The notes: a model not told the origin generated them from the letters alone. DNA of 64,000 nt from Spirochaetae bacterium HGW-Spirochaetae-5 (GCA_002839285.1 PGXT01000001.1:6573-70572); one strand, 5' to 3'; shown: positions 9,228 through 29,395, counted from the first letter of the stretch. Numbers and translations: made by a program.

Positions 9228-9646
9228 GTAATCCGGATAGAGGGATGAACGTACCAGATGATTTAAAATATAGGGAGAATCATCAGTGGATAAAGATGAT
9301 TGATGACATAACCGGAATTTGCGGCATAACAGATTTTGCACAGGACAGTCTAGGCGATATAACATTTGTTGAATTTATCAATAATATAATAGGAAGCGAA
9401 AATCCCGAAGACGAAAAAATAGCAATAATAGAATCACCAAAAGATTCATTTGATGTTTACAGCATGGTATCAGGTAAAATATTAGAGATAAACAGATTAC
9501 TTGAAGATTCGCCGGAACTTCTTAATAGCGACCCTTATGGAGACGGGTGGATATTTAAAATAGAAATCGAAGACGCTATGGTTCTTGAGGATCTCCTGGA
9601 ACCTGATGAATATCTGGAAACAATTCTGCCGGATGATTTTATATAA
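9224..9646 (+). CDS. gcvH: glycine cleavage system H-protein-like lipoyl carrier
   Basis: Candidate lipoyl-lysine motif ESPKDSFDVYS and the C-terminal SDPYGDGWIFKIE motif typical of GcvH. Start overlaps the TPR gene stop (ATGA). No gcvT or gcvP adjacent. Confidence 0.7.
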   Translation: MSNPDRGMNVPDDLKYRENHQWIKMIDDITGICGITDFAQDSLGDITFVEFINNIIGSENPEDEKIAIIESPKDSFDVYSMVSGKILEINRLLEDSPELLNSDPYGDGWIFKIEIEDAMVLEDLLEPDEYLETILPDDFI

Positions 9647-9793
9647 ATCCGGTAATTAATATAACTTCCGATAAGATATATTATGTCTCTTTAGCTTTTT
9701 TCTTATGATTTACTCTGCTATTATAGCAGAATAAAGCAAGCATTTTTTTATTTTTCCCAACTCTTTTTCCACACCGCTTTTGTAACTTTTCCT

Positions 9794-9822
9794 TGACATT
9801 AAACACCATTACCCGGTATATT
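9794..9822 (+). promoter_or_regulatory. sigma70-like promoter candidate: TTGACA, 17-nt spacer, TATATT
   Basis: Hexamers read from the sequence about 180 nt upstream of the 10000..10752 ORF. The host may use a different consensus, so confidence is low. Confidence 0.2.
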
Positions 9823-9930
9823 AATTTTACTTTGCCAGAAAATCCCTAATCCCCCGACTCTAAAAAAAAGAATAAAAAACCGGATTCAAACAACACACCG
9901 GAGCAACCACCAGAAGAGGAAAAACTCCGC

Positions 9931-9942
9931 TTAAAACGGGAT
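9931..9942. repeat. 12-bp direct repeat TTAAAACGGGAT, left copy (candidate att junction of the integrated element)
   Basis: Identical 12-mer at 20457..20468, which is 85 bp upstream of the Rep gene start. The two copies bracket the co-directional gene block. Confidence 0.35.
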
Positions 9943-9999
9943 TATGTTTTTCAGGAGGATAAATTTAATTTCCCAAGTACAGAACTTGAAAACAGAATT

Positions 10000-10752
10000 A
10001 TGAAAATAGTTCATGATAACCGGGGACATTTAATCCTATTTAAAAAAGCCATCTTCTGGACAGAGGCCTGTAAAGAGGAATCTAATTACTATGACTGGAA
10101 ATCCTCCCTCCGCGCTCATAATAACATTAATGGCAAATACGATATACATCTTAATCTTAATTTAAATAAAGATGTCCCGGACATTTCAGAACTACCGGCC
10201 GGAAAGTACCGGATTGTTATATCCTTTTATAACCCCTCTAAAAGGACTAAAAACAGGCTTTACGGCTGTGTAGATACTCAGAGTATAGACTTTGTTGTCG
10301 GAAGCCCTCTAGAGCTTAAAAACGGGGGGGAGAGGGGAACGAGCAACCACTTTAACCCCTCCCCGATCTCCCAGCTTAACCAGCTGGAAGAGATCGGGAA
10401 CGTGGTCAACAAAGTCGGGGAGATTTTAAACAAGTCTCTCGATATCCACAAAAACACTATCATGTTTCAAAACGAAATAGAGAAAACAGCTTTTGAAAAA
10501 GGATACCAGGAGCGATTAAAACAGGAAGAGTCCGAGCGAACTATCAAGACTTTAACTGAACGATTGGACGCACTAGAGAGAGGGAAAGAATTAACCACCG
10601 GCGGGAATAACTCACTTGTTGAGACTCTTCTTAAAGCGGGGAAATCAATGGGGATTCTCCCGGACATAGATATTAATAACATCACGCCGGAGCAGATTGT
10701 TTCTATCCTTTCCAAATTTCAGGCGCCAGCTACACCGCCCGCGGGGGAATAA
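10000..10752 (+). CDS. hypothetical protein (250 aa) with a coiled-coil C-terminal half; the only plus-strand gene inside the putative element
   Basis: ORF with a C-terminal heptad-like region (QERLKQEESERTIKTLTERLDALERGKE). No recognisable motif. Confidence 0.4.
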   Translation: MKIVHDNRGHLILFKKAIFWTEACKEESNYYDWKSSLRAHNNINGKYDIHLNLNLNKDVPDISELPAGKYRIVISFYNPSKRTKNRLYGCVDTQSIDFVVGSPLELKNGGERGTSNHFNPSPISQLNQLEEIGNVVNKVGEILNKSLDIHKNTIMFQNEIEKTAFEKGYQERLKQEESERTIKTLTERLDALERGKELTTGGNNSLVETLLKAGKSMGILPDIDINNITPEQIVSILSKFQAPATPPAGE

Positions 10753-11078
10753 TTATGCATGTTAATTGGTTAATCAATTTTTTAAATTATAGAGTCCAAA
10801 GAGACTGCACTTATTTTAATAAAGCTGGTGTATTCTTCAGAGATAAAAATGATAAGATAATAAAAATTTCGTCTATTGAATCAAATGAAAATAATGATAT
10901 TATTTTGACGGAGGATTAAGAGTGGAAAACAAAGAAATCAATATTTTAATCCAAAATTTAAGAAAAGTTTTAACCGAACAGGAATTAAAAATAGATGATA
11001 CAACAACAGATCTATCTTTCAATTACAAAGTTTTTATACAAAAAACTCTTCAATCTCTTCAATATATAAGATAAATTT

Positions 11079-11112
11079 TACCGCATAACGCCAGATACGG
11101 CGTTATGCGGTA
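11079..11112. repeat. perfect palindrome TACCGCATAACGCC-AGATAC-GGCGTTATGCGGTA (14-bp arms, 6-nt centre)
   Basis: Read directly from the sequence. Lies just beyond the late-operon terminator near the left end of the element. Contains CATAA/TTATG half-sites. Confidence 0.5.
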
Positions 11113-11132
11113 AAAAACACCTTCAAAAAAAC

Positions 11133-11166
11133 GAAAAAAAAGCCCCGGTCATTAATACCGGGGCTT
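11133..11166 (-). terminator. rho-independent terminator for the minus-strand late operon (AGCCCCGGT-loop-ACCGGGGCT plus T8 on the minus strand)
   Basis: GC hairpin preceded on the plus strand by an A-run (a T-run on the minus strand), immediately downstream of the last late gene (11234). Confidence 0.6.
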
Positions 11167-11233
11167 TGAAAAATCAATTCATCAAGAATTGATTTTTTTG
11201 CTTTCCGGAGGCTTCGCGTGGATCTATTTTCCG

Positions 11234-11656
11234 TCACCCGCCGACACTTTTAAAGACTTTATAAATAAATAGTAAAACGATTATTATTATGATTAAAACC
11301 CCGATATTAAATATTTTATCAAGGGAGCTTTCTTTCTCAGGCTCTGCACGGCTTTTAATAGTCAATAACGACTTGTTAACCGCGTCCAGTGCTGCACTCT
11401 TCTTAAATTTTACATCGTCACTGTCACCGGGAACGACACTTAAAACACCGCTTTTAATGACCTGTTTTAAGTCCTTTATGACTTCTTTATCCGGGGAAAA
11501 ATCCTTCTGGATAGTACCGCACCCGATTGATAAAAAAATACAGATCAATATAACCACATAAGCCACACCGAGAAAAGCCCCGATAAGAGCTTTAATGTTT
11601 CTCTTTATAAATGACAACACTCTTCCCCCCTGAATTTTTAAGCAGCATAAAGGCAA
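11234..11656 (-). CDS. u-spanin-like lysis protein (N-terminal signal peptide with lipobox, C-terminal TM anchor)
   Basis: Signal-like hydrophobic segment ending in the lipobox-like SIGC, a soluble middle, and a C-terminal TM helix IGVLIIIIIVLLFIY. Last gene of the lysis cassette. The true start may lie inside the track ORF, since it overlaps the upstream gene by 64 nt. Confidence 0.4.
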   Translation of the reverse strand: MPLCCLKIQGGRVLSFIKRNIKALIGAFLGVAYVVILICIFLSIGCGTIQKDFSPDKEVIKDLKQVIKSGVLSVVPGDSDDVKFKKSAALDAVNKSLLTIKSRAEPEKESSLDKIFNIGVLIIIIIVLLFIYKVFKSVGG

Positions 11657-12299
11657 GCAACGCCCCGCCGATTAAATATATTTTATCAATACCCGGCTTT
11701 ATAATTTCGTTGTAAAACTCTTTAGCCTCTGCATTCAATTTCTGTCCGGCTTTTTTCGAAGCTATAAACGGATTATTAAGAGATATATATAAAGATGCCA
11801 TTAAAGCAGGCTTTTTAAATACTTCATACCAGATCAAAATATTATTTACAATCGGAGCAACGGGGATAATTGCAATTTCATAATCAGCAGCATCAATTGA
11901 CTTTTCAGGTAAAAAAATTCCCCCGTGTTTTTTTAAGACCTCGATACCTTCCAGCCCCTCTTCTCTTAAATCAAAATGAATATGTCTGTTAAAGCTGGAT
12001 AGATAAACAGTATTAGCATAAGCCCTCAACTCATTAAAAAGCCATACATTCATGTACAGAGGATAGACCGTGATATCAATAGCTTTCCCGCCTGAGTGAT
12101 TCGCGTTCCTTTTTGTCCGGTCTTGTGAGGTTACGATAATATCAGTGACATTCTCGTAAAAATATGATTTTTTTTTTGCATCATTGAATATGTCGGCCAG
12201 TAAGGTATATAAACCATGACCGGCATCATTTAAGCGAGACCCGTTTTTAAAATTCGGAGTCTGGAAGATGAAAAAATCTTTATCATACTTTATTGACAT
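11592..12299 (-). CDS. peptidase M15 (VanY / L-alanoyl-D-glutamate peptidase-like) endolysin candidate with C-terminal TM segment
   Basis: Zinc-ligand motifs HSGGKAIDI (H-x6-D) and HIHFD (H-x-H) characteristic of M15 peptidases. C-terminal hydrophobic helix IYLIGGALLAFMLL. Confidence 0.65.
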   Translation of the reverse strand: MSIKYDKDFFIFQTPNFKNGSRLNDAGHGLYTLLADIFNDAKKKSYFYENVTDIIVTSQDRTKRNANHSGGKAIDITVYPLYMNVWLFNELRAYANTVYLSSFNRHIHFDLREEGLEGIEVLKKHGGIFLPEKSIDAADYEIAIIPVAPIVNNILIWYEVFKKPALMASLYISLNNPFIASKKAGQKLNAEAKEFYNEIIKPGIDKIYLIGGALLAFMLLKNSGGKSVVIYKEKH

Positions 12300-12756
12300 T
12301 TTCTATTAACCACTTCGCCGGGTCTGTGTGTTTGTTGTTTATCATAACTTCAAAGTGTAAATGCTCCCCCATGGAAAAGCCATAATTTCCAATAGTGCCG
12401 ACCTTCCCCCCTTCAAGTATTATGTCGCCTACGGAGAGACCTTTTAACGGGGCTATATGCTTAAATACGAAAGTTACATCAGGATTATCGGAGCTGTGAG
12501 CGATAACATACGGAGTCCAGGCACGCCCCAGAGGGACAGTATTATCAATTTCAAACTTACCCCTGACAAGCTTAAATCTGCAAGGGTATTCACTGTCAAC
12601 GTCAAGGATTCTATCGACTGTCATATCGCACGGAGCAATAGCCGTTTTATTTTTACCTGTGAAATCAATTCCATAATGAAAAACAGGTTTTCTCCCCGGC
12701 AGTGTTCGCATCCCGTACGGGGAAGTTATTTTTTTGTTGTCAACCGGATATCTCAT
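12283..12756 (-). CDS. peptidase M23 (LytM-type) peptidoglycan endopeptidase
   Basis: M23 motifs HYGIDF (H-x3-D) and GEHLHFEV (H-x-H). 157 aa, single domain. Confidence 0.8.
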   Translation of the reverse strand: MRYPVDNKKITSPYGMRTLPGRKPVFHYGIDFTGKNKTAIAPCDMTVDRILDVDSEYPCRFKLVRGKFEIDNTVPLGRAWTPYVIAHSSDNPDVTFVFKHIAPLKGLSVGDIILEGGKVGTIGNYGFSMGEHLHFEVMINNKHTDPAKWLIENVNKV

Positions 12757-13010
12757 ATCTCATCAACCTTTATTTCTTCGGCTTCCAGTGCTGCCAGTTC
12801 ATCAAGTTTATATTGTATTGCCTGAGCGCATAGATCAGGGATAGATTTTAAAACTCTGAATCTCTCAATATTTTGAGGTGAATATATATCCGATTCACGG
12901 AGAACCAGAAAGTCACCATTTGCAAGCTGTAAGACAAAACAGGTTATATCCGTTTTATCTTCGGTTAATTCAATATCAATTATTGTTGTATCGTAAAATA
13001 GAATATTCAT
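12753..13010 (-). CDS. hypothetical protein (85 aa)
   Basis: ORF packed tightly between neighbouring genes with 4-nt overlaps on both sides. No recognisable motif. Confidence 0.35.
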   Translation of the reverse strand: MNILFYDTTIIDIELTEDKTDITCFVLQLANGDFLVLRESDIYSPQNIERFRVLKSIPDLCAQAIQYKLDELAALEAEEIKVDEI

Positions 13011-13976
13011 TTAAACCACCCTTTGGAAAATAAAAGAAAAGGGGGCTACACTTGAATTTCTTCCTCTACAATACCATGTCCCAGAAAGAGCCACCCCATT
13101 ATCATACTGAAAATTATATTCATATATATTATCTGTTGAATACTTTACTATAAAACTTTGATTTCTTGCTACATCGCCATTCATCATGTTAGCAATATCT
13201 CTAGCTGAAATAATAGAGCCGATAGGGAAATTTATATTAGAATTGACTGAACCAGTATAAACTTTATTTTCTTTTAAAAACCCTGCTGCAACTGCTGACG
13301 CATCTTTTAAAAAGCCCTCAGTTTCTGCAGATGCTTCTTTCAGAAAGCCGAGAGCAATTAAAGCAGCTTCATCTAAACCGGCAGAGGATTTAAAAAAAAA
13401 ACCGGATAGATTGAAGTTGAATATATATTGCAGTTTGCAGAAATCCTTTGCATTCATCAAATTTACAGTACCGGAAGCAGTGACAAGAAAATAAATTGAA
13501 ACATCACTGGAGACAATCCCCTTTGCTGTCTTGATTGCTGCAAGGTCAAGAGCAATAGACTTTTTTGCGTAATCCTGAGAGAGGTTTAAATTCTCCCCCT
13601 CTGCCGTGTCCTGATAGAATGATTCTGAGAGTTTGAAAAGTCCCGCGCTTATAAAGTCAGCTTCTGCGAGATTCTCATCACATGAAGTAAAAGCATTAAA
13701 AACAGTGTCCGCACCTATCCAAGCAGAGATTTTAATATCTCCCTTAAATCTGCTTATAACCTGATTAATGTAATCAGATTCAACCACCGTCAAGAAATTG
13801 TTTAATGATACTTCAAGCCCTGTTAGTTCAGTGACTTTCAATCTGCAAGCCATAACCTTTTTCGGGATATTCGCAAAATTATTTTTGCCGGATAGATTAA
13901 AGTCTAAACCCTGCATATTAAAATTAAATCCCGTTAATGTCTTAAAGTTCTGAAAGTCCTGAATTATAACAGCCAC
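13011..13976 (-). CDS. hypothetical structural protein candidate (321 aa; spike or major capsid candidate)
   Basis: Largest late-operon protein. Beta-rich N- and C-terminal regions and an internal triple repeat GFLKEASA / GFLKDASA / GFLKENK. No enzymatic motif. Confidence 0.4.
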   Translation of the reverse strand: MAVIIQDFQNFKTLTGFNFNMQGLDFNLSGKNNFANIPKKVMACRLKVTELTGLEVSLNNFLTVVESDYINQVISRFKGDIKISAWIGADTVFNAFTSCDENLAEADFISAGLFKLSESFYQDTAEGENLNLSQDYAKKSIALDLAAIKTAKGIVSSDVSIYFLVTASGTVNLMNAKDFCKLQYIFNFNLSGFFFKSSAGLDEAALIALGFLKEASAETEGFLKDASAVAAGFLKENKVYTGSVNSNINFPIGSIISARDIANMMNGDVARNQSFIVKYSTDNIYEYNFQYDNGVALSGTWYCRGRNSSVAPFSFIFQRVV

Positions 13977-14002
13977 TTGACCCGCCCCAAATTTTTATTT
14001 AT

Positions 14003-14344
14003 TTATACAAGCAGCTCAAAAACCAGAACCGCTACAATATCCGAGCTGTGCGAATTATTAAATTCATAATTATACTTTGCGCCCGGCTCCCCGAGTTTTA
14101 CCTTTTCGGGGAAAAGGTCTGTTAAAAGCTCAACCCCGATATTATCAAAAACCTTTTCACTTGTTGTACTGTTAAGCATTGTCATGTTTAATTTTCCCCT
14201 TAAACTTGACAGATCTGTGAGACAAACAACCTCACCTATTACGGGGTTTTTTCCCCTGATAAGCTGGTCAAGATCAAAAGTTCCAGCCAAGCCGGTTGAA
14301 CCGGCTGGAACGGTAATTGAAACTTGTGAATATTTCTTACCCAT
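14003..14344 (-). CDS. hypothetical protein (113 aa)
   Basis: ORF in the late operon. No recognisable motif. Confidence 0.35.
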   Translation of the reverse strand: MGKKYSQVSITVPAGSTGLAGTFDLDQLIRGKNPVIGEVVCLTDLSSLRGKLNMTMLNSTTSEKVFDNIGVELLTDLFPEKVKLGEPGAKYNYEFNNSHSSDIVAVLVFELLV

Positions 14345-14368
14345 AATTTAAACCCTATATCCCTTAAA

Positions 14369-14917
14369 TTATGCTATCTGCTGGGGCTTGTAAAGAATCC
14401 CTTTCATTACAACAACCAGCTCCGCATTTGCTTCAAGGATTGGAAGATTCACATTGAAATCAAAGTTTTCATCTTCTATCCATTCTCCGCCATCTATAAA
14501 AAGAGGCTGGAACGCTCTTACCGGCTGGGGCTGTGATGTACTTGTCGCCACCGTTACCGCTGAGTCAAAAAACTCTGCAAGGGAACCGCCCGCGATCTCT
14601 CTATCTGCAATAGATAGCTGAAAGTTACCGAGAGTGAGCTTCGAAAGGATTGCCGGGGTAACTGCTGCACCTGTTGAAAGCTTGTAAATAAATCCGACTT
14701 TCTGAACGTTGAAAATCTGATCTACCGGGAAGCGGGGACCCTGATTTTTCCAGTTTGTTTTACTACCTTTTGAGCCGAATTTCCCATCCATTTCAAGAAA
14801 CGCTTTTGCATCTACAACGGGGGTTGACGCATTACCGTCAATGGTATAATAAAAGGATTTTCCTATCCCGTCCATCAACTTTGAATCACCTTTTTTATTT
14901 GTTACTTTTCTTAACAT
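14369..14917 (-). CDS. hypothetical protein (182 aa), beta-rich; candidate jelly-roll capsid protein
   Basis: ORF in the late operon with alternating hydrophobic beta-strand-like composition. Fold is not verifiable from sequence alone. Confidence 0.35.
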   Translation of the reverse strand: MLRKVTNKKGDSKLMDGIGKSFYYTIDGNASTPVVDAKAFLEMDGKFGSKGSKTNWKNQGPRFPVDQIFNVQKVGFIYKLSTGAAVTPAILSKLTLGNFQLSIADREIAGGSLAEFFDSAVTVATSTSQPQPVRAFQPLFIDGGEWIEDENFDFNVNLPILEANAELVVVMKGILYKPQQIA

Positions 14918-14957
14918 TTGAATAACTCCGAATTTTTTATTTTAAAGTTTTAAGGTA

Positions 14958-15428
14958 TTAAAACCTTGTTACATCAGTTTCAACCGCTGCACGGTTTACA
15001 CCATTTCCCGCCGGGGGAATATATGAAGCCTGCTTTGTCTGTCCGTTTGGCATCTTAACCGGAACAGATACACCGCTTACCGCATTCATAGAACCGGAAC
15101 CGCCGAGCGCGTTAATGTATGTAATCAGAGTCGCTTTTTTCTTCGGGTCAGTCTCTTTCCCTGCAATCTCTGTTAATATGTCGCGAATCATCGCCACACC
15201 ACCGACCGCCATACCACCGACCGCCAGAAACTCCGCGACCTTCTTATCTTTTACAAGAAGACTTGCCAGAACCGCCGGAGCTACCATTGTCAAAAGGTTT
15301 GACAGATATTTATTGCTGATTCTTCCAGCAAGTAAAAACTGGACAATAACCGGAGCAAATGCGCCGACTGCCTTGTCTTTATCTGCAAAATTTTTAACGC
15401 TACCCATTAAATCTAATTTTTTAGCCAT
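14958..15428 (-). CDS. membrane-associated protein (156 aa; Ala/Gly/Val-rich hydrophobic segments)
   Basis: Three hydrophobic stretches (AFAPVIVQFLLAG, LLTMVAPAVLASLLV, FLAVGGMAVGGVAMI). ORF in the late operon. Confidence 0.4.
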   Translation of the reverse strand: MAKKLDLMGSVKNFADKDKAVGAFAPVIVQFLLAGRISNKYLSNLLTMVAPAVLASLLVKDKKVAEFLAVGGMAVGGVAMIRDILTEIAGKETDPKKKATLITYINALGGSGSMNAVSGVSVPVKMPNGQTKQASYIPPAGNGVNRAAVETDVTRF

Positions 15429-15431
15429 CGT

Positions 15432-16076
15432 TTATTTCCTCTTCTTTTTATTGCTTAATAACAAAACCCCGGCAGTTAAACCGCCGATAATTAACAGCGG
15501 ATTCATACCGGAGTTTTTCTTATTATCGTTTTCAATTTCAATTTCAATTTCATCATTGTATATTGTTTCTTTCTCTTCAGGCGGTAAAACCGGAGTAATA
15601 GGCTGCACCTGATAAATATTTGCCTCTGCGCTCTGTGTTGTTTTATAATTATAAATTATACCGATAAGACTATCAGTTCTAAATTTATATATTGCCTGTA
15701 AAATCTGAAGAACTCCATTTCTACTGAAAGCCGTTTCGCCCTGGTCTGTCTTTGTCTTCATAATCTCAGTTATGAAACTTTCTGAATTTTCCGGGGTTAC
15801 TGAATACCCTCTTAAGATTGATTCTTTCAGGTATGATAATATTATATGCTGCGCGTACCACCATGATACAACCGTGACGCCGTTTCTCTTAAGTAAATAC
15901 TGAACATGGCTTGTAAGCGCGAACAGAACCGCCATTGACGCCGTTTTTGTTTTTCCGTCTGACAGTCCGAAAGTAAGAACTTTACTAACTGCAAGTTTCG
16001 AATTAAAATCCGGGTCATTATTTGAAAACCAGTTTCTGAGACTGGTAATATCTATATATTTTCTATCAATTGTCAT
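15432..16076 (-). CDS. C-terminally membrane-anchored protein with a degenerate P-loop-like motif (214 aa)
   Basis: GLSDGKTKT resembles Walker A but is one residue short. C-terminal TM helix LLIIGGLTAGVLLL followed by KKKRK. Size is in the range of the small packaging ATPases of membrane-containing phages, but ATPase activity is not supported by motif alone. Confidence 0.4.
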   Translation of the reverse strand: MTIDRKYIDITSLRNWFSNNDPDFNSKLAVSKVLTFGLSDGKTKTASMAVLFALTSHVQYLLKRNGVTVVSWWYAQHIILSYLKESILRGYSVTPENSESFITEIMKTKTDQGETAFSRNGVLQILQAIYKFRTDSLIGIIYNYKTTQSAEANIYQVQPITPVLPPEEKETIYNDEIEIEIENDNKKNSGMNPLLIIGGLTAGVLLLSNKKKRK

Positions 16077-16080
16077 AATC

Positions 16081-16602
16081 TTAATACCATCCCAGAAACG
16101 CGAAATACTGATTAATCATTGCCTTAATATCATCAACAACCGCCATTCCCTGCTCTGGGATATCCCCGGCGTATAACTCATAATAAGCCTTTGCCGTTTC
16201 TATTACTGCCATAGTGGAAATATAAACATTCTTTCCGCTTGAATACATATCCCCAACAAGAGGCGCATCTTCTGCCAGCTTATCCAGTGCCGACAATAAA
16301 GGAGCGGAAGCATCGACAAAGGCTTTTATTCCTGTGTCTGCGTAAACGTCAGATACTGTCTCTTTTATGTCGCTGTATTGTTCCTGTACGCTCTGCGCTG
16401 CATCGACTGTCAACTCTACGGCGTTTTGAACCATGTCCATAATCTCTGACTGATAAGCAGCGGACGCCACATCCTGAACAGTTTCAACTGCATTCTGTGC
16501 AACATCAACAGCACTCTGGACGGCGCCAGTAACAGCAGAAACAGCATTTGTAATAATTCGCGGGGGACTCCAACCCCAGCCGACAACATCACTTTGTTTC
16601 AT
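16081..16602 (-). CDS. hypothetical Ala/Val/Gln-rich protein (173 aa)
   Basis: Repetitive S/AVxxAVQxAV segments. No TM or enzymatic motif. Confidence 0.35.
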   Translation of the reverse strand: MKQSDVVGWGWSPPRIITNAVSAVTGAVQSAVDVAQNAVETVQDVASAAYQSEIMDMVQNAVELTVDAAQSVQEQYSDIKETVSDVYADTGIKAFVDASAPLLSALDKLAEDAPLVGDMYSSGKNVYISTMAVIETAKAYYELYAGDIPEQGMAVVDDIKAMINQYFAFLGWY

Positions 16603-16604
16603 CT

Positions 16605-16799
16605 TTAACAGTGACCTTTTTCCCTATGTGATAAAGTCGAGGAAGCTTTAATGCAAATTTCAAACTCAAAGAGATTTGAGAAAAAAACTTTACAGTGACG
16701 GAAAAAGTCAGCAGTATGTATCTTATGACAATTTCTTTTATTGTCTCTGTTTTGTTTTCGCTCATCCTTAACCCCTTTTAAATTTTGCAATTTCTTCAT
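16605..16799 (-). CDS. small hypothetical ORF (64 aa), doubtful
   Basis: Fills a 165-nt gap between neighbouring genes. Basic, no motif. Confidence 0.15.
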   Translation of the reverse strand: MKKLQNLKGVKDERKQNRDNKRNCHKIHTADFFRHCKVFFSNLFEFEICIKASSTLSHREKGHC

Positions 16800-17169
16800 C
16801 AGGAAACCTTTCCCCCAGCTTTAAAAAATCATAACTATTATCATAGTCTATGAATTTTGAACCGTCCCACACTCTACAAAAAACATGATAACGGTTTACA
16901 TCTGTTCTTAAGTACACCACTTCAAAATCAATTTCATTCTGCATTAAGTAGATCATTGTGACTTTTGTTTTTTCGCCACAATCCCCACCATATCTGATTA
17001 TGTCGCTTGGGTCTCTGGAAACATCTTCGAAAACCTGCTCTTTAAATATGACTCCCTGCGACATAAAATTAAAAAAGTCTGTTAAGCTCTTTTCGATCAA
17101 AAAGGCGGGGAGCTTTTGAAAACCCGCAAAGAAAAACAGCTGATCTGTATAATGCTGAAAACTGAACAT
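16768..17169 (-). CDS. transglutaminase-like/papain-fold cysteine peptidase candidate (133 aa)
   Basis: GDCGEKT followed downstream by YHVF and D residues, compatible with a Cys-His-Asp transglutaminase-like core. Weak, motif-level only. Confidence 0.3.
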   Translation of the reverse strand: MFSFQHYTDQLFFFAGFQKLPAFLIEKSLTDFFNFMSQGVIFKEQVFEDVSRDPSDIIRYGGDCGEKTKVTMIYLMQNEIDFEVVYLRTDVNRYHVFCRVWDGSKFIDYDNSYDFLKLGERFPDEEIAKFKRG

Positions 17170-17175
17170 AGACTT

Positions 17176-17337
17176 TATCTGTACTTTTTAATCATTGTTT
17201 CTTTTTTCTTTTTGTCCGAATCAATTTCATTACAGCGTTTATTCCAGTCTTTTAAACGCTCTTCAAACTTTTTCCATGATTCAAGGCTTGCGCTTGCCTT
17301 TGGTTTTTTTGGTCTTTTAGGTTTTTTAATAGCCATT
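17176..17337 (-). CDS. small highly basic protein (53 aa; MAIKKPKRPKKPK...), candidate DNA-binding or genome-condensing protein
   Basis: ORF translated by hand from the minus strand; absent from the track because it is shorter than 60 aa. About 35 percent Lys/Arg. Confidence 0.3.
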
Positions 17338-17563
17338 ACTTACCCGCCTTTTTTATAATCATAATCAAAGGAATTGAGAGAATGACAAGTTTAACCGGAA
17401 CAAAACCGAATATCTTATATTCGTAAAGTGCTTTAACTGCGTCCGGTAAAACTCCCTGCTCTTTAAATTCCTTAACTAATTCTTTTTCGTCTAAAAACAA
17501 ACTCATTCTTTGACCTGTTGTATTTTTGATACATGTATCAATTATACAACAATTTGTCAACAA
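17336..17563 (-). CDS. small membrane protein (C-terminal TM; probable start at the internal Met giving about 56 aa)
   Basis: C-terminal helix LVILSIPLIMII. First gene after the internal terminator. Confidence 0.3.
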   Translation of the reverse strand: MLTNCCIIDTCIKNTTGQRMSLFLDEKELVKEFKEQGVLPDAVKALYEYKIFGFVPVKLVILSIPLIMIIKKAGK

Positions 17564-17598
17564 AAAAACCGCCTTTTTAGGGGCGGTTTTAAAAAAAG
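17561..17598 (-). terminator. rho-independent (bidirectional-looking) terminator separating the early and late transcription units of the element
   Basis: AAAACCGCC-loop-GGCGGTTTT hairpin flanked by an A-run and a T-run, immediately downstream of the lipoprotein gene. Confidence 0.6.
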
Positions 17599-17633
17599 TT
17601 GTATTTTATTAAATTATAAAATAATTAGTTAAT

Positions 17634-17957
17634 TTACTTCTTTTCGAGTGTGTAAGTTTTTTCCGCTGGATAATCCATCCACCAGAGGTAGGAAAAAATA
17701 TGAATTATATTAAATTCACTCTTTTGTAAATTGGTCTGAAAGTCTTTATACTCATCTTTCTGAAGTTTGACCTCTGTTGACATCCACAAAGGCTTACTGT
17801 CAGTGTGAGCATATGGAGTCACGCCTTTAAGCTCCCCATCAATAAAAATTTTAGCTTCGCCGGGGACACTCTGAATTTTTACAGTGCTTGAACAACCGAC
17901 CGCAAAGATTAAAAGACTTAATACAACCGCGAACATCTTAAATTTTTTCATGTGCAT
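17634..17957 (-). CDS. lipoprotein (107 aa)
   Basis: Signal peptide with lipobox AVGC (MKKFKMFAVVLSLLIFAVGCSS). Confidence 0.5.
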   Translation of the reverse strand: MHMKKFKMFAVVLSLLIFAVGCSSTVKIQSVPGEAKIFIDGELKGVTPYAHTDSKPLWMSTEVKLQKDEYKDFQTNLQKSEFNIIHIFSYLWWMDYPAEKTYTLEKK

Positions 17958-18005
17958 AACCTCTCTTTTATTTGATATAAAAATTAATTTATATGCTCTT
18001 TTTTG

Positions 18006-18215
18006 TCAATGTAAAATCTTTTTCTGCTTCTTAATATAGGCATAAGCTTTTAAGGCTATCCGGCCTATGACTTCAATATTTTTTTTCCGTTCCTGCTGCT
18101 TCCATTTTTTTATATTGTTAAGGTCACGACCTAGAATAAAACCAAACACAGCAGACACCATACAGACCAATAAAAATAATAAATTAAACATCACTCCCCG
18201 CCTGCATGAAATCAA
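18006..18215 (-). CDS. small single-TM protein with basic C-terminus (holin-like or virion membrane protein candidate)
   Basis: TM helix FNLLFLLVCMVSAVFGFILG followed by a Lys-rich tail. Confidence 0.3.
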   Translation of the reverse strand: MISCRRGVMFNLLFLLVCMVSAVFGFILGRDLNNIKKWKQQERKKNIEVIGRIALKAYAYIKKQKKILH

Positions 18216-18402
18216 ACTCCATGCTCTTAATGTCTTTAGAGTCTATATTACTTTTAATTTTCTTAAGTAATACCCGGCTTAATTTATGCAGTGCTTCAGC
18301 TTCTTTTTTTATTGCTTCAGCTGCTCCCGGATTCATTTTTAAAAGTCCAAAGGACTCCATCATATTTTTCTGAGTGCTTAAAAAATCGTTTTTAACTGAC
18401 AT
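18184..18402 (-). CDS. hypothetical protein (72 aa)
   Basis: ORF in the early unit. No motif. Confidence 0.3.
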   Translation of the reverse strand: MSVKNDFLSTQKNMMESFGLLKMNPGAAEAIKKEAEALHKLSRVLLKKIKSNIDSKDIKSMEFDFMQAGSDV

Positions 18403-18403
18403 A

Positions 18404-19018
18404 TTAGTTCCCCCATTGTTCTGCCATTGCTTTAGATATACCAGGCGGGAAGAGACTTCTTTCTTTCCCTTTCCCTTTCCCTAATTTACCGAATTTAGAA
18501 TATTTACTTAATCCCGATTTTGTTTTTTTAGAATTATAAAATAGATATTCCGGTATAACTTCTGAAGAGGGAAATAACCCCCCCTCCGGAAACCAGTTTA
18601 AAAACGGTAAATTTTTAAGCCATAAACAAGTCTTCTTTGAATAATTATCTCCGAAAAAATAAGGCTGTATAATTTGATCAGGTTTTTTAAATTTTGTACT
18701 CAGAACACCGACCGGATTTTCAATTGCAATTTTAGGGATATTACAATCCCATAATTTTTTTACAAAAGAAATAGCTTCTTTTTGCTGTTCTATTTTGTTT
18801 TTAAAATGTGCTGCCCCTGAAACTGCTAAATGAGTACACGGAGGAAACGCGATCATCATATCCCATTTATCATTTATTATATCCATGACATCGCCCTGGT
18901 AATGTAAACCAGGCTTTTCTGTTGGTAATAAATCACATGATAAAACATAATGACCAAGTTTTTTAAATTCATCTCTGACGGCTCCGGAATATTCACATGC
19001 AACCAGTATCCGCATCAA
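18404..19018 (-). CDS. miniature DNA (cytosine-5)-methyltransferase-like protein (204 aa) with a divergent motif I and almost no target-recognition domain
   Basis: Collinear C5-MTase motifs: motif I variant ILVACEYSGAVRDEF in place of LFxGxGG; motif IV FPPCTHLAVSGA (PC catalytic dipeptide); motif VI IAIENPVGVL (ENV); motif VIII-like YSKKTCLWL; C-terminal QWGN (motif X-like, compare QFGNSV). Confidence 0.5.
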   Translation of the reverse strand: MMRILVACEYSGAVRDEFKKLGHYVLSCDLLPTEKPGLHYQGDVMDIINDKWDMMIAFPPCTHLAVSGAAHFKNKIEQQKEAISFVKKLWDCNIPKIAIENPVGVLSTKFKKPDQIIQPYFFGDNYSKKTCLWLKNLPFLNWFPEGGLFPSSEVIPEYLFYNSKKTKSGLSKYSKFGKLGKGKGKERSLFPPGISKAMAEQWGN

Positions 19019-19290
19019 GCCCCCCTCTGAACGTCAATGTCTTTTGTCAGTGTGTTATATATTTCTCTAATCTCCGCGGGCGTCTTTACAGCTTTATTTT
19101 CAACGTGTAAAGCACTGTCATTTTTTAACATTCCTTCCCCTTCAACGTCTATAAAATCTATACCGTCAAATTTTGAGACAGTAAACTGAAAAGGAATTTC
19201 ATCAATCCGCTTTTTCTCTACGCCTTTTTTTATTAAATATACTTGTATCGCTATTTCAAATTCTTTAACAGTCCCTATAAAACAGATCAT
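19015..19290 (-). CDS. hypothetical protein (91 aa)
   Basis: ORF between the Rep and MTase-like genes with 4-nt overlaps at both ends. Confidence 0.35.
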   Translation of the reverse strand: MICFIGTVKEFEIAIQVYLIKKGVEKKRIDEIPFQFTVSKFDGIDFIDVEGEGMLKNDSALHVENKAVKTPAEIREIYNTLTKDIDVQRGA

Positions 19291-20372
19291 TATTTTTTAT
19301 CCTCCGGTTTTTTATATAATTCGACGTCTTGAATATCCGCGCCGTTGTATTGGTTTCCCCTGAAAAGTTGATTTTTAACGCCGTCCGACAGTACCCGGAA
19401 GCTCTTGACGACATCAGAGTCGTCAAGCTCCGGGAATCGGAAGGTTTTAACAGCTTCATAGCTCCAGAAATGTGTTAGTTCCCGTTTATGTTTAAGCAAG
19501 TGTGCTTCTTCTATAACAAGGGAGAAGAAGCACCGATCTCGACAATCCCCGCAAAATCCATCGTAACCGCTCGGACAGTCGACAGGGCTTGTTTGCACTT
19601 CCCCGACAACCCCCCGAGTCCTTCCACTGGAATATCCTCTGGATGCTCTAAACGCTTTTTTGTTGTGTTTGATAAGTGAATATAAACCGATTATTTTTTT
19701 AAGTTCTTCATCGGTAAGAGCTGCTCCGGCCTTCGCTTTTTGATAAATTGCCTTAACCCCGTTGAAACCTTTGGCCACATATTTAAAAATGTAATAGCTT
19801 GCCCGTGTACTGTAGCAAGCCTCTACACTGGTTATATGTTTCCATTTGCTGTTAATACGGTCTTTTAATTCAGGGTCTGCAATCTCTGCGAATGGCTTTG
19901 TCTTTTTTGTGTATTTGTTATATCTTCTACGCATAACAAATTTAACGGGGTTTTTGAGAGTGATTAAAATGTGAGCATGTGCAACGCCTTTTTTCGTTGC
20001 TTCAAGCGTAACAATATAATCGGTCATCTCGATATAACTGTCACGCCTGAGAGCATCAAAAAAATATTTTGAATCTTTCCCGAATTGCTCCCAGCTCTCA
20101 AAAGTGTCGGGATAAGTCAAGACAACATGAATTAAATTTGACATTGAGTTCTCAGTGTCAATATTTGTTTTAGCTTCAAGCATCTTTTCAATCTTCCAGA
20201 CTCGACCAGATACCCGGCTATCATGTGCAACATTACCCCGGCGCGGAGCAAGCCCGACAAATTCATTATTAAATTCTATGTAAAACTCCTTTTTGTAATG
20301 GAGATCAAAGAAATTAATGACTTCATAATCGAGATAATTTGTTGCTTTTTTTGCTTGACTTCTATCGCTCAA
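19290..20372 (-). CDS. rolling-circle replication initiator, HUH endonuclease superfamily I (phiX174 gpA / Microviridae VP4 / PM2 P12-like), with C-terminal Cys cluster
   Basis: Motif 1 VVLTYPDT, motif 2 HAHILITL (HUH), motif 3 YYIFKYVAKG (two catalytic Tyr spaced as in phiX174 YVAKYVNK). C-terminal CPSGYDGFCGDCRDRC resembles a zinc ribbon. Confidence 0.8.
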   Translation of the reverse strand: MSDRSQAKKATNYLDYEVINFFDLHYKKEFYIEFNNEFVGLAPRRGNVAHDSRVSGRVWKIEKMLEAKTNIDTENSMSNLIHVVLTYPDTFESWEQFGKDSKYFFDALRRDSYIEMTDYIVTLEATKKGVAHAHILITLKNPVKFVMRRRYNKYTKKTKPFAEIADPELKDRINSKWKHITSVEACYSTRASYYIFKYVAKGFNGVKAIYQKAKAGAALTDEELKKIIGLYSLIKHNKKAFRASRGYSSGRTRGVVGEVQTSPVDCPSGYDGFCGDCRDRCFFSLVIEEAHLLKHKRELTHFWSYEAVKTFRFPELDDSDVVKSFRVLSDGVKNQLFRGNQYNGADIQDVELYKKPEDKK

Positions 20373-20456
20373 TTCGGTAGTTTCCTTTTAATTGAATACA
20401 ACAAACCCGCCCCAAATAACGGGTTTTGTTTTCGGTAATTATTAAGAAATGACATT

Positions 20457-20468
20457 TTAAAACGGGAT
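20457..20468. repeat. 12-bp direct repeat TTAAAACGGGAT, right copy
   Basis: Identical to 9931..9942. Sits 85 bp upstream of the Rep start codon. Confidence 0.35.
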
Positions 20469-20485
20469 ATTCTCCCGCTTTTTTT

Positions 20486-20689
20486 TTATTTTGGTAATTT
20501 ACTTACGATGTCAGTCCATTTGATTTTACATTCTTCTCTCGTACCGGAGATAAAAACCTGCTGAACTATCCCCTCTAGTTGAATTGTAAAAAATGAACCA
20601 GTGTTGTCTTTTTTGTCTGTGATTGCAGACATAAAAATGATTTTAGCGGGATTGAAAACCCCATTTTCAGTGACTATAAGATTTGACAT
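20486..20689 (-). CDS. hypothetical small protein (67 aa)
   Basis: ORF between the element and ispF. No motif. Confidence 0.25.
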   Translation of the reverse strand: MSNLIVTENGVFNPAKIIFMSAITDKKDNTGSFFTIQLEGIVQQVFISGTREECKIKWTDIVSKLPK

Positions 20690-20845
20690 TTGAGACCTCT
20701 TTTTATTTTTTTTATTTTAACCTCTCGGAAGAGTGGTTAATCTTTTTTATTTTGCCGGGAGAGTTTTACTACCTCCCCCGGCAAGTTTGCCCTTTTCCCA
20801 CTGTACACGCCCCCCAGCCTGCACAGTGATAAAGGGGCAAGCCCT

Positions 20846-21019
20846 TTATTTTATTTCCTGAAGGTAATTATGAATGCTACGGATTTTTGCGTCACAGTTT
20901 AAATAAATTTCATCATTTCCAGGATTAAGAGTTGAGCAGGCTTTCAGCTCATCAATTACGACCTGTAATGATTTTTCTATTTTTTCGATCTGCTTGATAA
21001 CGTCGGAGGTGTTTGACAT
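20846..21019 (-). CDS. small protein (57 aa, MSNTSDVIKQIEKIEKSLQVVIDELKACSTLNPGNDEIYLNCDAKIRSIHNYLQEIK) downstream of ispF
   Basis: Hand-translated ORF; under 60 aa so missing from the track. Good AGGAG Shine-Dalgarno 6 nt upstream of the ATG. Confidence 0.35.
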   Translation of the reverse strand: MSNTSDVIKQIEKIEKSLQVVIDELKACSTLNPGNDEIYLNCDAKIRSIHNYLQEIK

Positions 21020-21107
21020 GGTAAACTCCTTTTAATATTAAAATTAATTTGCTTAATATTTAATAGAAAAAAGCTATTAGAATAAGATATATTATGTCTC
21101 CGCTGTA

Positions 21108-21614
21108 TTAGTTAAGACACAGAGCAGGATCAAAATAAAGAAGTGAAACAGTGTAGACAGCTATCCCCTCACCACGGCCGGTGAATCCGAGTTTTTCAGT
21201 AGTTTTACCTTTAATACCGATAGCAGCCGGTAAGAGTAAGCCATCCATTGCATCAGATATACTCTTTTTCATTTCAGTTATGTACGGGGAGATTTTAGGA
21301 TTATCACATATTACAACTGAATCGGTATTTATAACAGAAAAACCGTTGTTTATAAGTTTTTTATGAACCTCTTTTAAAAGCATCAGACTGCTGATATCTT
21401 TATATGCAGGATCGGTGTCGGGAAATAATTGTCCGATATCACCGATATTGGCAGGACTTAAAAAAGAATCTATAATTGAATGAACTAGAACATCCGCATC
21501 GGAGTGCCCCTGGAGACCCAGATGATGATCGATTTTTACTCCACCCAGAATAAGATCACGTCCATGAACCAGTGCATGAACATCAAATCCGTTTCCTATC
21601 CTGTAGTTTATCAT
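21108..21614 (-). CDS. ispF: 2-C-methyl-D-erythritol 2,4-cyclodiphosphate synthase
   Basis: Conserved GNGFDVHAL and HSDADVLVHS motifs. 168 aa. Confidence 0.9.
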   Translation of the reverse strand: MINYRIGNGFDVHALVHGRDLILGGVKIDHHLGLQGHSDADVLVHSIIDSFLSPANIGDIGQLFPDTDPAYKDISSLMLLKEVHKKLINNGFSVINTDSVVICDNPKISPYITEMKKSISDAMDGLLLPAAIGIKGKTTEKLGFTGRGEGIAVYTVSLLYFDPALCLN

Positions 21615-21620
21615 AGAGAA

Positions 21621-21932
21621 TTAGAGATTAAACACATCAGAAAGAGAGCTTAACTTTAATACGTTGAGAACTTTAGAACTTACTTTCTCAATAATAAGTT
21701 CCTTTTCTTTTTTCTTTTGAAGCTTTAAAAGACTTATGAGAACTCCAACACCCGAAGAGTCAATATAATCAACTTCTGAAAGATCAATTTCAATATCTTT
21801 ATCGGTATTCTGACCAATCTCAAAAAGTTTCTGTTTAAAAGTTTTTATAGACATCATTTCAATGTCTCCGTGAACTTTCAAAAAAACAGAGTTATCACGT
21901 TCCTGAACATCTATTTCCATAATTTCATCCAA
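21621..21932 (-). CDS. STAS-domain anti-sigma-factor antagonist
   Basis: 103 aa with DYIDSSGVGVLISL, the SpoIIAA-type phosphorylatable serine region. Confidence 0.65.
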   Translation of the reverse strand: MDEIMEIDVQERDNSVFLKVHGDIEMMSIKTFKQKLFEIGQNTDKDIEIDLSEVDYIDSSGVGVLISLLKLQKKKEKELIIEKVSSKVLNVLKLSSLSDVFNL

Positions 21933-22030
21933 TTAATACGATATCTGATTTATAGTAACAATAATAAGCAATAAGTCAAATTAATTTTTAATCCGTTTTA
22001 TTAAAAATCAATGGCAGCAGTTTATTTTCA

Positions 22031-23366: not shown

Positions 23367-24047
23367 CTAAGATAAACCTTCTTTATAAACCAGTATAAAA
23401 TACCGGTTAAAACCGGAAGTGTAACTATATAAAAAAGCCTGCACAAATTTAAAAGCAACCCCGACCCCTGCAAGTTCTTTAAAGGGATAGAGACATTTAT
23501 GCTGCTTAGGATTTATAATTATTGCATCGGGTAGAATTGTATCAGGTTCATGATGATCTGTTACTATAAAATCGATCCCGTTTTCTCTGCCGTAATTTAT
23601 CTCTTCAGTATCCCGGATTCCTGAATCCACTGTTATAACAAGGGTTATTTTTTCCTTTATAAACTCATCTATTATGTCACATGTAAGGCCGTAACTCTCT
23701 TTTGCTTTAGGATAACGGATAAGGGGAATACATCCCGCCTTACAAAGAACACTGTGTATTAATGTTAAAGATGTTATACCATCGAGATCGGAATCTCCGA
23801 AGACTGCTACTTTTTCTGCAGTCAGAATTGCTGTTTTTAATCTGCCGATACCTTCATAAATACCATGTAATAAAAACGGGCTGTGGAGACTATTAAGTTC
23901 AGGGAAAATAAAATCCAGTATCTCCTCTTCCTGAGTCATCCCTCTGGATTGAAGAATCGAAATAATAATTTTATCAATACCCGTACTGGCAGATATGGAA
24001 GCAATCTTATGCAGATCCGGATCCGGTATAATCCATTCAGGTTTCAT
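23367..24047 (-). CDS. recJ: RecJ N-terminal portion (DHH phosphoesterase domain), ending at a frameshift-type junction
   Basis: DHH motifs AVFGDSDLDGITS, ITVDSGI and IVTDHHEP. The ORF terminates about 60 nt before the next ORF starts, and the two frames overlap. Confidence 0.65.
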   Translation of the reverse strand: MKPEWIIPDPDLHKIASISASTGIDKIIISILQSRGMTQEEEILDFIFPELNSLHSPFLLHGIYEGIGRLKTAILTAEKVAVFGDSDLDGITSLTLIHSVLCKAGCIPLIRYPKAKESYGLTCDIIDEFIKEKITLVITVDSGIRDTEEINYGRENGIDFIVTDHHEPDTILPDAIIINPKQHKCLYPFKELAGVGVAFKFVQAFLYSYTSGFNRYFILVYKEGLS

Positions 24048-28498: not shown

Positions 28499-29395
28499 CT
28501 ATCCTTTAGGATGAAAATTTTTGTGAATTTTCTGAAGCTGTTTTTTAGCCATATGAGTATATATCTGAGTTGTTGAGATATCCATGTGGCCAAGCAGTTC
28601 CTGGACAGAACGGAGATCAGCTCCATTTTCTATCAGGTGCGTTGCAAATGAGTGCCTTAAAGTATGAGGCGTAATATTCTTTTTAATTTCAGTTCTTGTA
28701 ACATAATTTTTCAACAGACGCCAGACAGACTTTCTATTCAACTGAGACCCTTTTTTACTTACAAATAAAAACTCCGAATCTCTGCTGCCGATTATTGCCG
28801 GCCTTGATTCCTTTTTATATTTCAACAAAAGTCTAGCTGCTTCTTTACCTATCGGCACCATTCTCTGCTTATTACCTTTACCAATTACAGTTACGAATAG
28901 ATTATCAAAATCAACATCTCCGGAATTTAGATCTATTGCTTCTGAAATTCTCAAACCGCTGGAATATAATAACTCAAAAATGGTTTTATCACGAAGCTCA
29001 TAACTGTCCTCTTCTGATATCGAATTAAACAGCTTATTTAATTCATTAACAGTAAGAAAATCCGGCAAAGTTTTTTCTACATGAGGAGTTTCGATTTTCT
29101 CTGTGGGATTTTTAATATTAGTATCAACATTATCTGAAACAAAATTATAAAACTGTCTTATTGCAGCAAGAGATCTTGCCAGAGTTCTTGTTGAGTTTTT
29201 TTTATCATTTTTTTCATACTTTAAAAACTGCTGAATATCCTCATGTGTGGCATCAAGGATATCCTTACTTTTATTTGATAGAAATTCACTGAATTTTTTT
29301 AAATCATAGGTGTATGAATAAATGGAATTCTGGGACAACCCCTTTTCAACCTGAAGAAACTTTTTAAATCTTTTAATTGCCACTACTTCTTTCAC
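28499..29395 (-). CDS. tyrosine site-specific recombinase XerC/XerD-like
   Basis: C-terminal catalytic region LRHSFATHLIENGADLRSVQELLGHMDISTTQIYTHM (R..H-x-x-R..Y). 298 aa. Confidence 0.8.
   Translation of the reverse strand: MKEVVAIKRFKKFLQVEKGLSQNSIYSYTYDLKKFSEFLSNKSKDILDATHEDIQQFLKYEKNDKKNSTRTLARSLAAIRQFYNFVSDNVDTNIKNPTEKIETPHVEKTLPDFLTVNELNKLFNSISEEDSYELRDKTIFELLYSSGLRISEAIDLNSGDVDFDNLFVTVIGKGNKQRMVPIGKEAARLLLKYKKESRPAIIGSRDSEFLFVSKKGSQLNRKSVWRLLKNYVTRTEIKKNITPHTLRHSFATHLIENGADLRSVQELLGHMDISTTQIYTHMAKKQLQKIHKNFHPKG

Follow-up and report, generated by a model that had tools for sequence, protein, structure and literature searches.

Organization of the gcvH-ispF locus

The 64,000-nt stretch of DNA analyzed here (the window) comes from Spirochaetae bacterium HGW-Spirochaetae-5 (GCA_002839285.1, PGXT01000001.1:6573-70572) and carries, between the host genes gcvH and ispF, a phage-like element of about 25 open reading frames (ORFs), among them one for a rolling-circle replication initiator (Rep). 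A repeat scan of the region showed that the element is bracketed by a perfect 19-bp direct repeat, ATAAGATATATTATGTCTC, the left copy of which begins 25 bp past the gcvH stop codon, while the right copy ends 7 bp ahead of the stop codon of ispF, which is encoded on the other strand. The window contains no further match to this 19-mer at up to 2 mismatches. For an estimate of chance sharing, random pairs of 600-bp segments were drawn from the real, AT-rich sequence of the window, and 2 of 4791 such pairs had a 19-mer in common. As detailed below, the approximately 11.5-kb Rep-encoding element was very probably inserted into the dif site of the host chromosome by the Xer recombination machinery of the host. 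The coordinates of the features are collected in Table 1.

Junctions, empty site and circular form

The locus was found by exact-protein look-up in three assemblies: the European Nucleotide Archive (ENA) contig ERZ27239241 k141_4563, the NCBI metagenome-assembled genome (MAG) HGW-Spirochaetae-5, and Logan contigs of SRR3546454. The Logan contigs encode GcvH and IspF proteins identical to those of the window. The gcvH contig ends in ...ACTTCCGATAAGATATATTATGTCTCATT and the ispF contig starts with TCCGATAAGATATATTATGTCTCATTAGAAAATTTG..., with an overlap of 26 nt, and both carry bases specific for an uninterrupted site, namely ATT after the core, where the element has TTT, and TCCG before it, where the element has TAGA. 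The empty site (attB) thus reads gcvH...ACTTCCGATAAGATATATTATGTCTCATTAGAAAA...ispF and has a single 19-mer; with its flanks it forms a single 28-mer, ACTTCCGATAA-GATATA-TTATGTCTCAT. The whole element was found in the 11,503-bp Logan contig SRR3546454_24690, the ends of which overlap by 30 nt. As this overlap equals k-1 (Logan k = 31), the contig represents a circle of 11,473 bp. It is colinear with window positions 9690-21100 joined end to end, from which it differs by one mismatch and a 62-nt indel. The joint of the circle reads ...GCTATTAGAATAAGATATATTATGTCTCTTTAGCTTTT, and the attP read from it is TATTAGAATAA-GATATA-TTATGTCTCTT.

In the integrated form, attL consists of the host XerC-side arm, the 6-bp center and a XerD-side arm whose second-to-last base (T) is derived from the element, and it agrees with the dif of the clade (see below) at 27 of 28 positions. 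By their sequences, attB, attP, attL and attR fit a conservative exchange inside the 19-bp identity. Since the repeat is shorter than k-1, k-mers across both attP and attB must exist in the SRR3546454 reads. In the Logan contigs the chromosome breaks exactly at dif (loci L002 and L004), and the element closes as a circle through attP (L011). Such a graph pattern would be expected of a sample in which lysogens and non-lysogens occur side by side with a circular or tandem form of higher copy number.

It is rather unlikely, though worth weighing, that the element is inactive and persists as a fixed remnant, with the circular contig being a product of assembling a tandem array and the empty site that of a strain that was never infected. 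Integrative mobile elements that exploit Xer (IMEXs) often form tandem arrays in which the internal junction is attP (PMC12715192), and the circle and the empty site were both read from assembled contigs. On the other hand, the ORFs are intact and identical in the circular and integrated copies, which differ by the single mismatch in 11.4 kb, and the host flanks of the empty-site contigs are 100% identical to those of the lysogen, which argues for the same population. The mechanism of integration would be the same even for an inactive remnant. We infer that the element excises actively; attB in the same sample still shows element-free cells.

Three deletions set the window apart from the ENA and Logan assemblies, to which it is otherwise 100% identical. 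The first, of 62 nt at ~9861/9862, removes the Shine-Dalgarno sequence and the ATG of the 308-aa ORF, whose N-terminus and start codon fall in the lost segment. The second, of 46 nt at 21100/21101, lies right after the right 19-mer and takes away the last two bases of the dif arm and 44 nt of spacer; at this place both other assemblies read ...TTATGTCTCAT TAGAAAATTTG. The third, of 94 nt at 23367/23368, splits recJ into two ORFs (22078-23307 and 23367-24047). Because two independent assemblies agree and one deletion breaks a housekeeping gene, the three deletions are most likely artefacts of the source assembly of the window and not biology.

Table 1. Features of the element and of its host surroundings, in window coordinates.
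Feature	Position	Strand	Description
Host gcvH	9224..9646	+	PF01597; stop codon 17 bp before the dif 28-mer
attL	9664..9691	+	28-bp dif-like site, ACTTCCGATAA-GATATA-TTATGTCTCTT; identical in the ENA contig (L001)
Left 19-mer	9671..9689	+	crossover core; repeat scan
Element body	9690..21081		11,392 bp in the window; the 11,473-bp circle is the body plus one 19-bp core plus 62 nt
Left 12-mer	9931..9942	+	within the 308-aa protein's coding sequence, encodes L-K-R-D; no att site
308-aa ORF, 3' part	10000..10752	+	opposite strand to the main operon; homologs in L007 and L061
M23 peptidase, endolysin-like	12283..12756	-	PF01551, 1.2e-10; phrog_3578, 4e-32
Putative spike/receptor-binding protein	13011..13976	-	N-terminal part conserved; C-terminal part variable, fiber-/Collar-like
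Putative jelly-roll capsid protein, 182 aa	14369..14917	-	AlphaFold2 (AF2) and Foldseek
DNA methyltransferase	18404..19018	-	phrog_757, 8e-64; accessory
Rep	19290..20372	-	HUH rolling-circle initiator; HaHil HUH motif, YYIFKY tyrosine motif; PF23343, phrog_3419
Right 12-mer	20457..20468	+	3' half and U-tract of the intrinsic-terminator hairpin 20457-20480, upstream of rep
67-aa protein	20486..20689	-	beside attP and rep; 67% identity in L007, 48% in L009
57-aa ORF	20846..21019	-	adjoins attR/attP; no family match; similar-sized ORFs in relatives
attR	21075..21102	+	TATTAGAATAA-GATATA-TTATGTCTC(CG); XerC-side arm element-derived and degenerate; center and XerD-side arm of host type
Right 19-mer	21082..21100	+	repeat scan
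Host ispF	21108..21614	-	PF02542; convergent with gcvH across dif
Host xerD	28499..29395	-	TIGR02225 equivalog, 359.7 bits (cutoff 329.6); 7.4 kb from the site

The repeated 12-mer is a chance pair

A different repeat, the 12-mer TTAAAACGGGAT, had been proposed in a first-pass annotation of the window as the bracket of the element. It is true that this 12-mer is present exactly twice in the window, both times on the + strand, and that the right copy lies 85 bp upstream of the rep start (20372). Such a pair is, however, no rarer than chance would have it: an exact match of at least 12 nt was common to 425 of 4824 random segment pairs (8.8%) and to 26 of 265 pairs at 10.5-kb spacing (about 10%), and the window contains 679 distinct repeated 12-mers. 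Nor do the two copies enclose the element. The left one is coding and the right one is part of a terminator stem (hairpin GCGGGAGAAUAUCCCGUUUU, -12.3 kcal/mol, z = -4.0, located 3' of the 67-aa ORF on the - strand), approximately 615 bp inside the true right end. Comparison of the integrated and empty loci puts the junctions 260 bp and 614-632 bp further out than the 12-mers, and the element also takes in 9690-9999 and the two small ORFs at 20486-20689 and 20846-21019, so that its limits are wider than first given.

The pair was real enough, with only these two occurrences, to raise the idea of a target duplication or att core at which Rep- or Xer-mediated integration had taken place. Yet the empty site has no 12-mer and instead one copy of the 19-bp core, and in the circular form (L011) both 12-mers lie in the interior, at a distance of 947 bp, while the joint is at the 19-mer. 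Copies of the 12-mer are also absent from the related elements L007 and L009. The 12-mers are a chance pair, and their role as an att site deserves practically no credence.

The 28-mer as the dif site of the host

The layout of attB is that of a dif site, with two 11-bp arms around a 6-bp center and an ATAA/TTAT inner dyad. The 28-mer matches the predicted dif of Leptospira interrogans chromosome I, ACTTCCGATAATACATATTATGTCCCTT (PMC3025954 supplement), at 24 of 28 positions, including 11/11 in the left (XerC) arm, and the experimentally confirmed dif of Bacillus subtilis, ACTTCCTAGAATATATATTATGTAAACT (Kono et al. 2011, PMC3025954), at 21 of 28. When one genome per species was scanned for the exact 19-mer (185,579 species), 46 matches were obtained, one per genome, and 43 of these genomes were Spirochaetota/Leptospirales MAGs. 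The nine positions of the site that the scan left unspecified (1-7 and 27-28) were kept in 39-45 of the 46 matches, and the sequence beyond the site was unrelated. With the loci of the 43 genomes oriented by the site, the GC skew was positive in the left flank of 33 out of 40 and negative in the right flank of 31 out of 37 (sign tests ~4e-5), a change from + to - that is the polarity expected at a replication terminus.

Could the conserved 28-mer be some other single-copy site, such as a chromosomal integrase target or a regulatory site? Its dif function was assigned from sequence, and the local skew of the window is ambiguous. Against this stand the resemblance to the predicted Leptospira dif with its fully matching XerC arm, the 11-6-11 layout with the dyad, and the occurrence once per genome in 43 genomes at the position of the skew switch. 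We consider such another function very unlikely and the 28-mer to be dif.

In most of the 46 genomes (dif loci L012-L057), a loose T-A-G/A-A/G-A-A/T-A/T motif, commonly TAGAAAA, follows the XerD-side arm at +1 to +7, and the attP of the element keeps TAG directly after this arm, in the same position as in the dif loci. As the TAGAAAA-like motif is so common there, the conserved site may extend beyond the canonical 28 bp. Two loci of the scan are unusual. At positions 7219-7246 of L019 (CAXXHB010000003.1) there is an attL-like dif variant, in which ...TTATGTCTCTT runs into an A/T-rich flank where ...CAT TAG would otherwise stand. Positions 1745-1772 of L018 (the Omnitrophota MAG JAUXSB010000033.1) have a non-host left arm and a right arm ending in ...CTT, TAATTTTATAA-GATATA-TTATGTCTCTT. 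Both loci are short, and the sites may be junctions or attP of other dif-integrating elements. In IMG/VR, the 19-mer matched two loci, L058 and L059; the latter, a fragment with a tailed-phage terminase and an HNH gene, was rejected as a chance match.

Proposed integration by the host Xer recombinases

The first-pass annotation had noted that no tyrosine or serine recombinase is encoded by the element, and this was borne out by Pfam, PHROGs and NCBIfam scans of all its ORFs of at least 50 aa and by a tblastn search with the host XerD, which returned nothing in the element. The xerC/D-like gene that it had pointed to outside the element is the host xerD according to TIGR02225. Integration had been left open between Rep and host Xer, and the anatomy of the junctions favors the latter: it is that of Xer recombination at dif, and all four junction types fit a conservative exchange within a dif-like site, whereas a Rep-mediated event is not supported. 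Compared with the host dif, attP is identical in the center (6/6), nearly so in the right, XerD-type arm (10/11) and degenerate in the left, XerC-type arm (6/11), the arms being assigned by analogy with Escherichia coli and B. subtilis (PMC5357621). Sequence comparison therefore supports the classification of the element as a putative IMEX.

In the mechanism that we propose, host XerC and XerD would bind the double-stranded attP carried by the replicative form as well as the dif of the chromosome, and strands would be exchanged at the borders of the common 6-bp center GATATA. Integration would leave attL as a near-perfect dif and attR as a hybrid. With such a dif at attL, chromosome dimer resolution would be kept, and as both products keep an identical center and an intact XerD arm, the reaction would be reversible, which in turn would explain why one sample contains both attB and attP. 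Rep would then replicate the circle by the rolling-circle mode.

An alternative is that an unrecognized recombinase or factor of the element, for instance the product of a conserved small ORF next to attP, acts at the dif-like site, with host Xer either dispensable or a partner. Most of the element proteins are without a family match, the 67-aa protein has been kept, next to attP and rep, in L007 and L009, and TLC-phi is an example of an IMEX that encodes a small activator of Xer (PMC6744903). However, no ORF resembles a tyrosine or serine recombinase, a DDE transposase or DUF3653/XafT, and an 11-6-11 attP with the center and XerD arm of the host dif is what Xer needs; an element with a small activator would still be an IMEX. 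We regard a recombinase or recombination factor of the element's own in this role as unlikely and integration by the host Xer as the better explanation.

Several points weigh against this explanation nevertheless. The dependence of integration and excision on Xer is what the site sequences suggest, and within the 64-kb window only xerD was seen, with no xerC there. More than half of the approximately 25 ORFs of the element have no recognizable family match, leaving room for an unrecognized recombinase or accessory factor. The circular contig could originate from a tandem prophage array, in which the junction between copies is attP. As for the identity of dif, the 43 genomes behind the skew aggregate are phylogenetically related, and the GC skew in the window itself follows the gene strand and turns negative again with 9 kb more to the left. 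Because it tracks gene orientation, the local skew was dropped as evidence of the terminus and the 43-genome aggregate was relied on instead.

Genes of the element

Rep matched the PF23343 (REP_ORF2-G2P) profile with an E-value of 1.4e-7 and 32.1 bits (cutoff 27.8). A Walker A motif was not found in any ORF of the element, so there is no recognizable packaging ATPase in it, and Pfam and PHROG scans revealed neither a Zot- or FtsK-type ATPase nor a transposase. Sequence searches of the PDB with Rep and the 182-aa, 321-aa and 235-aa proteins gave nothing significant, and an Rfam scan of positions 9000-22000 gave no match. Several small membrane proteins are encoded. The counterparts of the putative spike protein in L007 and L061 bear a Collar domain.

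The conserved 182-aa protein, for which only 11 representatives were found among 1.84 billion, was modeled with AF2 from 12 input sequences; a model from 3 sequences, with a predicted local distance difference test score (pLDDT) of 36.5, was unusable. The 12-sequence model (pLDDT 78.9, predicted template-modeling score 0.74) predicts an all-beta, jelly-roll-like fold, and nearly all of the top Foldseek matches were single jelly-roll capsids, among them PCV2 Cap, STMV, SPV1 and capsids of circular Rep-encoding single-stranded DNA (CRESS) viruses, at E-values from 1e-5 to 1e-3 and with low template-modeling scores of 0.3-0.49. On the basis of this model the protein is tentatively assigned as a capsid protein. 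The element as a whole probably represents a small temperate phage, non-tailed and of a family not yet described.

At 18404-19018 and 17634-18402, the DNA methyltransferase gene, a gene for a PEGA-domain lipoprotein and two small ORFs were seen in this element only. Since L007, L009 and L061 lack them, they look like an accessory ('moron') region set between the modules for replication and structure. Where the left (+) module converges with the main (-) operon, a perfect inverted repeat of 17 bp, with a loop of 6 nt (TTTTACCGCATAACGCC / GGCGTTATGCGGTAAAA), occupies 11076-11115 and probably acts as a terminator in both directions; a second strong hairpin follows at 11139-11167. At 17516-17551, a 20-nt overlapping palindrome (TGTTGTATTTTTGATACATG / CATGTATCAATTATACAACA) marks the start of the 75-aa ORF, a short way downstream of a terminator (17565-17590); it may function as an operator or as an origin-like element.

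Related elements

Relatives of the element are rare, with only five Rep homologs among 5.8 billion proteins. L007 has a Rep that is 74% identical and lies on a 352-kb JGI contig, where an 11.15-kb syntenic element occupies the same gcvH/ispF gap in a related spirochaete. Its brackets are ACTTCCGATAA-GATATA-TTATGTCTCTT and TATTTTGATAT-GATATA-TTATGTCTCAT, and the bases that differ between them (positions 11 and 27) confine the crossover to 15 bp including the 6-bp center, a location that cleavage by Xer at the center borders would predict. L061, in the MAG SZUA-423, has a Rep of 46% identity and shares at least 11 core genes; its host neighbors are trkA and a hemerythrin gene, and the sites on its two sides, 10,749 bp apart, are a full dif and TGTGAACATAT-GATATA-TTATGTCTCAT. 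Its position between different host genes indicates that the family targets the dif sequence and not a particular gene neighborhood. In the partial contig L009 (Rep 50% identical), ...ATAA-GATATA-TTATGTCTCAT is found beyond two small ORFs upstream of rep. Every integrated copy has a complete dif on one side (27/28 in the attL of the window) and, on the other, a site with a degenerate left arm derived from the element. The contig encoding protein P0010 is only 932 bp long.

A Rep search in IMG/VR found no relatives, searches of JGI metagenome contigs with the Rep profile and with an attL-specific pattern gave nothing, and tblastn of Rep and the 182-aa protein against 50,697 phage genomes gave no match. 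A 9,297-bp contig (L063, Logan SRR23829994_10862) with a 30-nt terminal overlap, and hence a circle of 9,267 bp, encodes distant homologs of the capsid-like 182-aa protein (28% identity) and of the 235-aa and 308-aa proteins, together with an M23 peptidase. A Rep homolog and a dif-like site were not detectable in it. It may belong to the same virus group as a more distant member, possibly one that does not integrate.

Comparison with known dif-integrating phages

The element resembles VGJ-phi, a filamentous IMEX of Vibrio cholerae, in lacking an integrase and in having a single double-stranded dif-like attP and an HUH rolling-circle Rep. Integration of VGJ-phi at dif leaves two Xer-competent sites and is hence reversible (PMC5357621). 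The attP of VGJ-phi differs from dif1 at four positions of the central region by the XerD side, restricting catalysis to XerC; in the present element, by contrast, the center GATATA is the same in attP and attB, as seen in all three integrated elements, and degeneracy is found in the outer XerC arm instead. Furthermore, the host belongs to the Spirochaetota, no Zot/pI ATPase is present, and the element is not recognizably filamentous.

Similarity is also seen with the dif-type double jelly-roll (DJR) prophages of Vibrio (Ma & Zhang 2025, PMC12715192), which are small, non-tailed, temperate and integrase-less, measure ~11-13 kb and reside at dif. In both groups one junction regenerates dif, and a 'right-armed' attP mimics the center and one arm. 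The element nevertheless has no sequence similarity to these prophages, lacks a packaging ATPase, has a Rep of PF23343, and its putative capsid protein is the 182-aa single jelly-roll candidate instead of a DJR protein.

Like CTX-phi and TLC-phi, the element would use the host XerCD at dif and encodes no integrase. CTX-phi, however, folds a single-stranded attP from two inverted sites and integrates irreversibly. A second inverted site was absent here, as the core (at up to 2 mismatches) and the pattern ATAA-N6-TTATGT each match the window only twice, both times on the + strand. TLC-phi has a degenerate XerD arm and encodes XafT, whereas the XerD arm of the element is intact (10/11), and no DUF3653-like protein was detected among the small ORFs by Pfam and PHROG scans. 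In its architecture, attP departs from all three classical classes of Vibrio IMEX.

The gokushovirus and other microvirus prophages with dif motifs (PMC7062461) are likewise small, Rep-encoding and integrase-less, and use XerCD at dif-like motifs. The present genome is about twice as large (11.47 kb versus ~4-7 kb) and differs in its M23/lysis-type enzymes and many small membrane proteins, and no homologs of microvirus F, H or VP4 were found with Pfam or PHROG. With Inoviridae and Plectroviridae it shares a gpII/ORF2-type rolling-circle Rep (PF23343), although their Zot/pI ATPase was not found. There is a loose likeness to FLiP (Finnlakeviridae), a lipid-containing single-stranded DNA phage, in genome size (~9-11 kb), rolling-circle Rep, cell-wall hydrolase and jelly-roll capsid components, and the FLiP penton protein was among the weak fold matches of the 182-aa protein (rank 39). 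FLiP is not known to have a recognizable packaging ATPase either. Sequence homology between the two is absent, however, and FLiP has a lytic life cycle and is not known to integrate.

Implications

In the literature searched, which did not cover subscription journals, no spirochaete IMEX was found. As the IMEX mechanism is already well known as a class, the present case is an extension and not a surprise: it adds a new phylum, and a virus-like family that is very rare, to the known range of Xer hijacking. The borders of the element have been corrected, and attB, attP, attL and attR could be read directly. In addition, a dif sequence, ACTTCCGATAAGATATATTATGTCTCAT, is defined for a large clade of uncultivated Spirochaetota, which helps to locate replication termini and other dif-integrated elements.

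More speculatively, and with somewhat less than even confidence, the element may represent an undescribed family of small temperate phages that infect Spirochaetota, are non-tailed and lack a packaging ATPase, with a rolling-circle HUH Rep, a single-jelly-roll-like capsid protein and possibly a single-stranded DNA genome. Beyond the proteobacterial and Bacteroidetes examples, which are well studied, no earlier IMEX would then have used an attP whose center and XerD arm are both fully identical to dif. If this is true, such phages would rely on a complete, reversible two-strand exchange by XerCD without FtsK, possibly aided by the conserved 67-aa protein beside attP.

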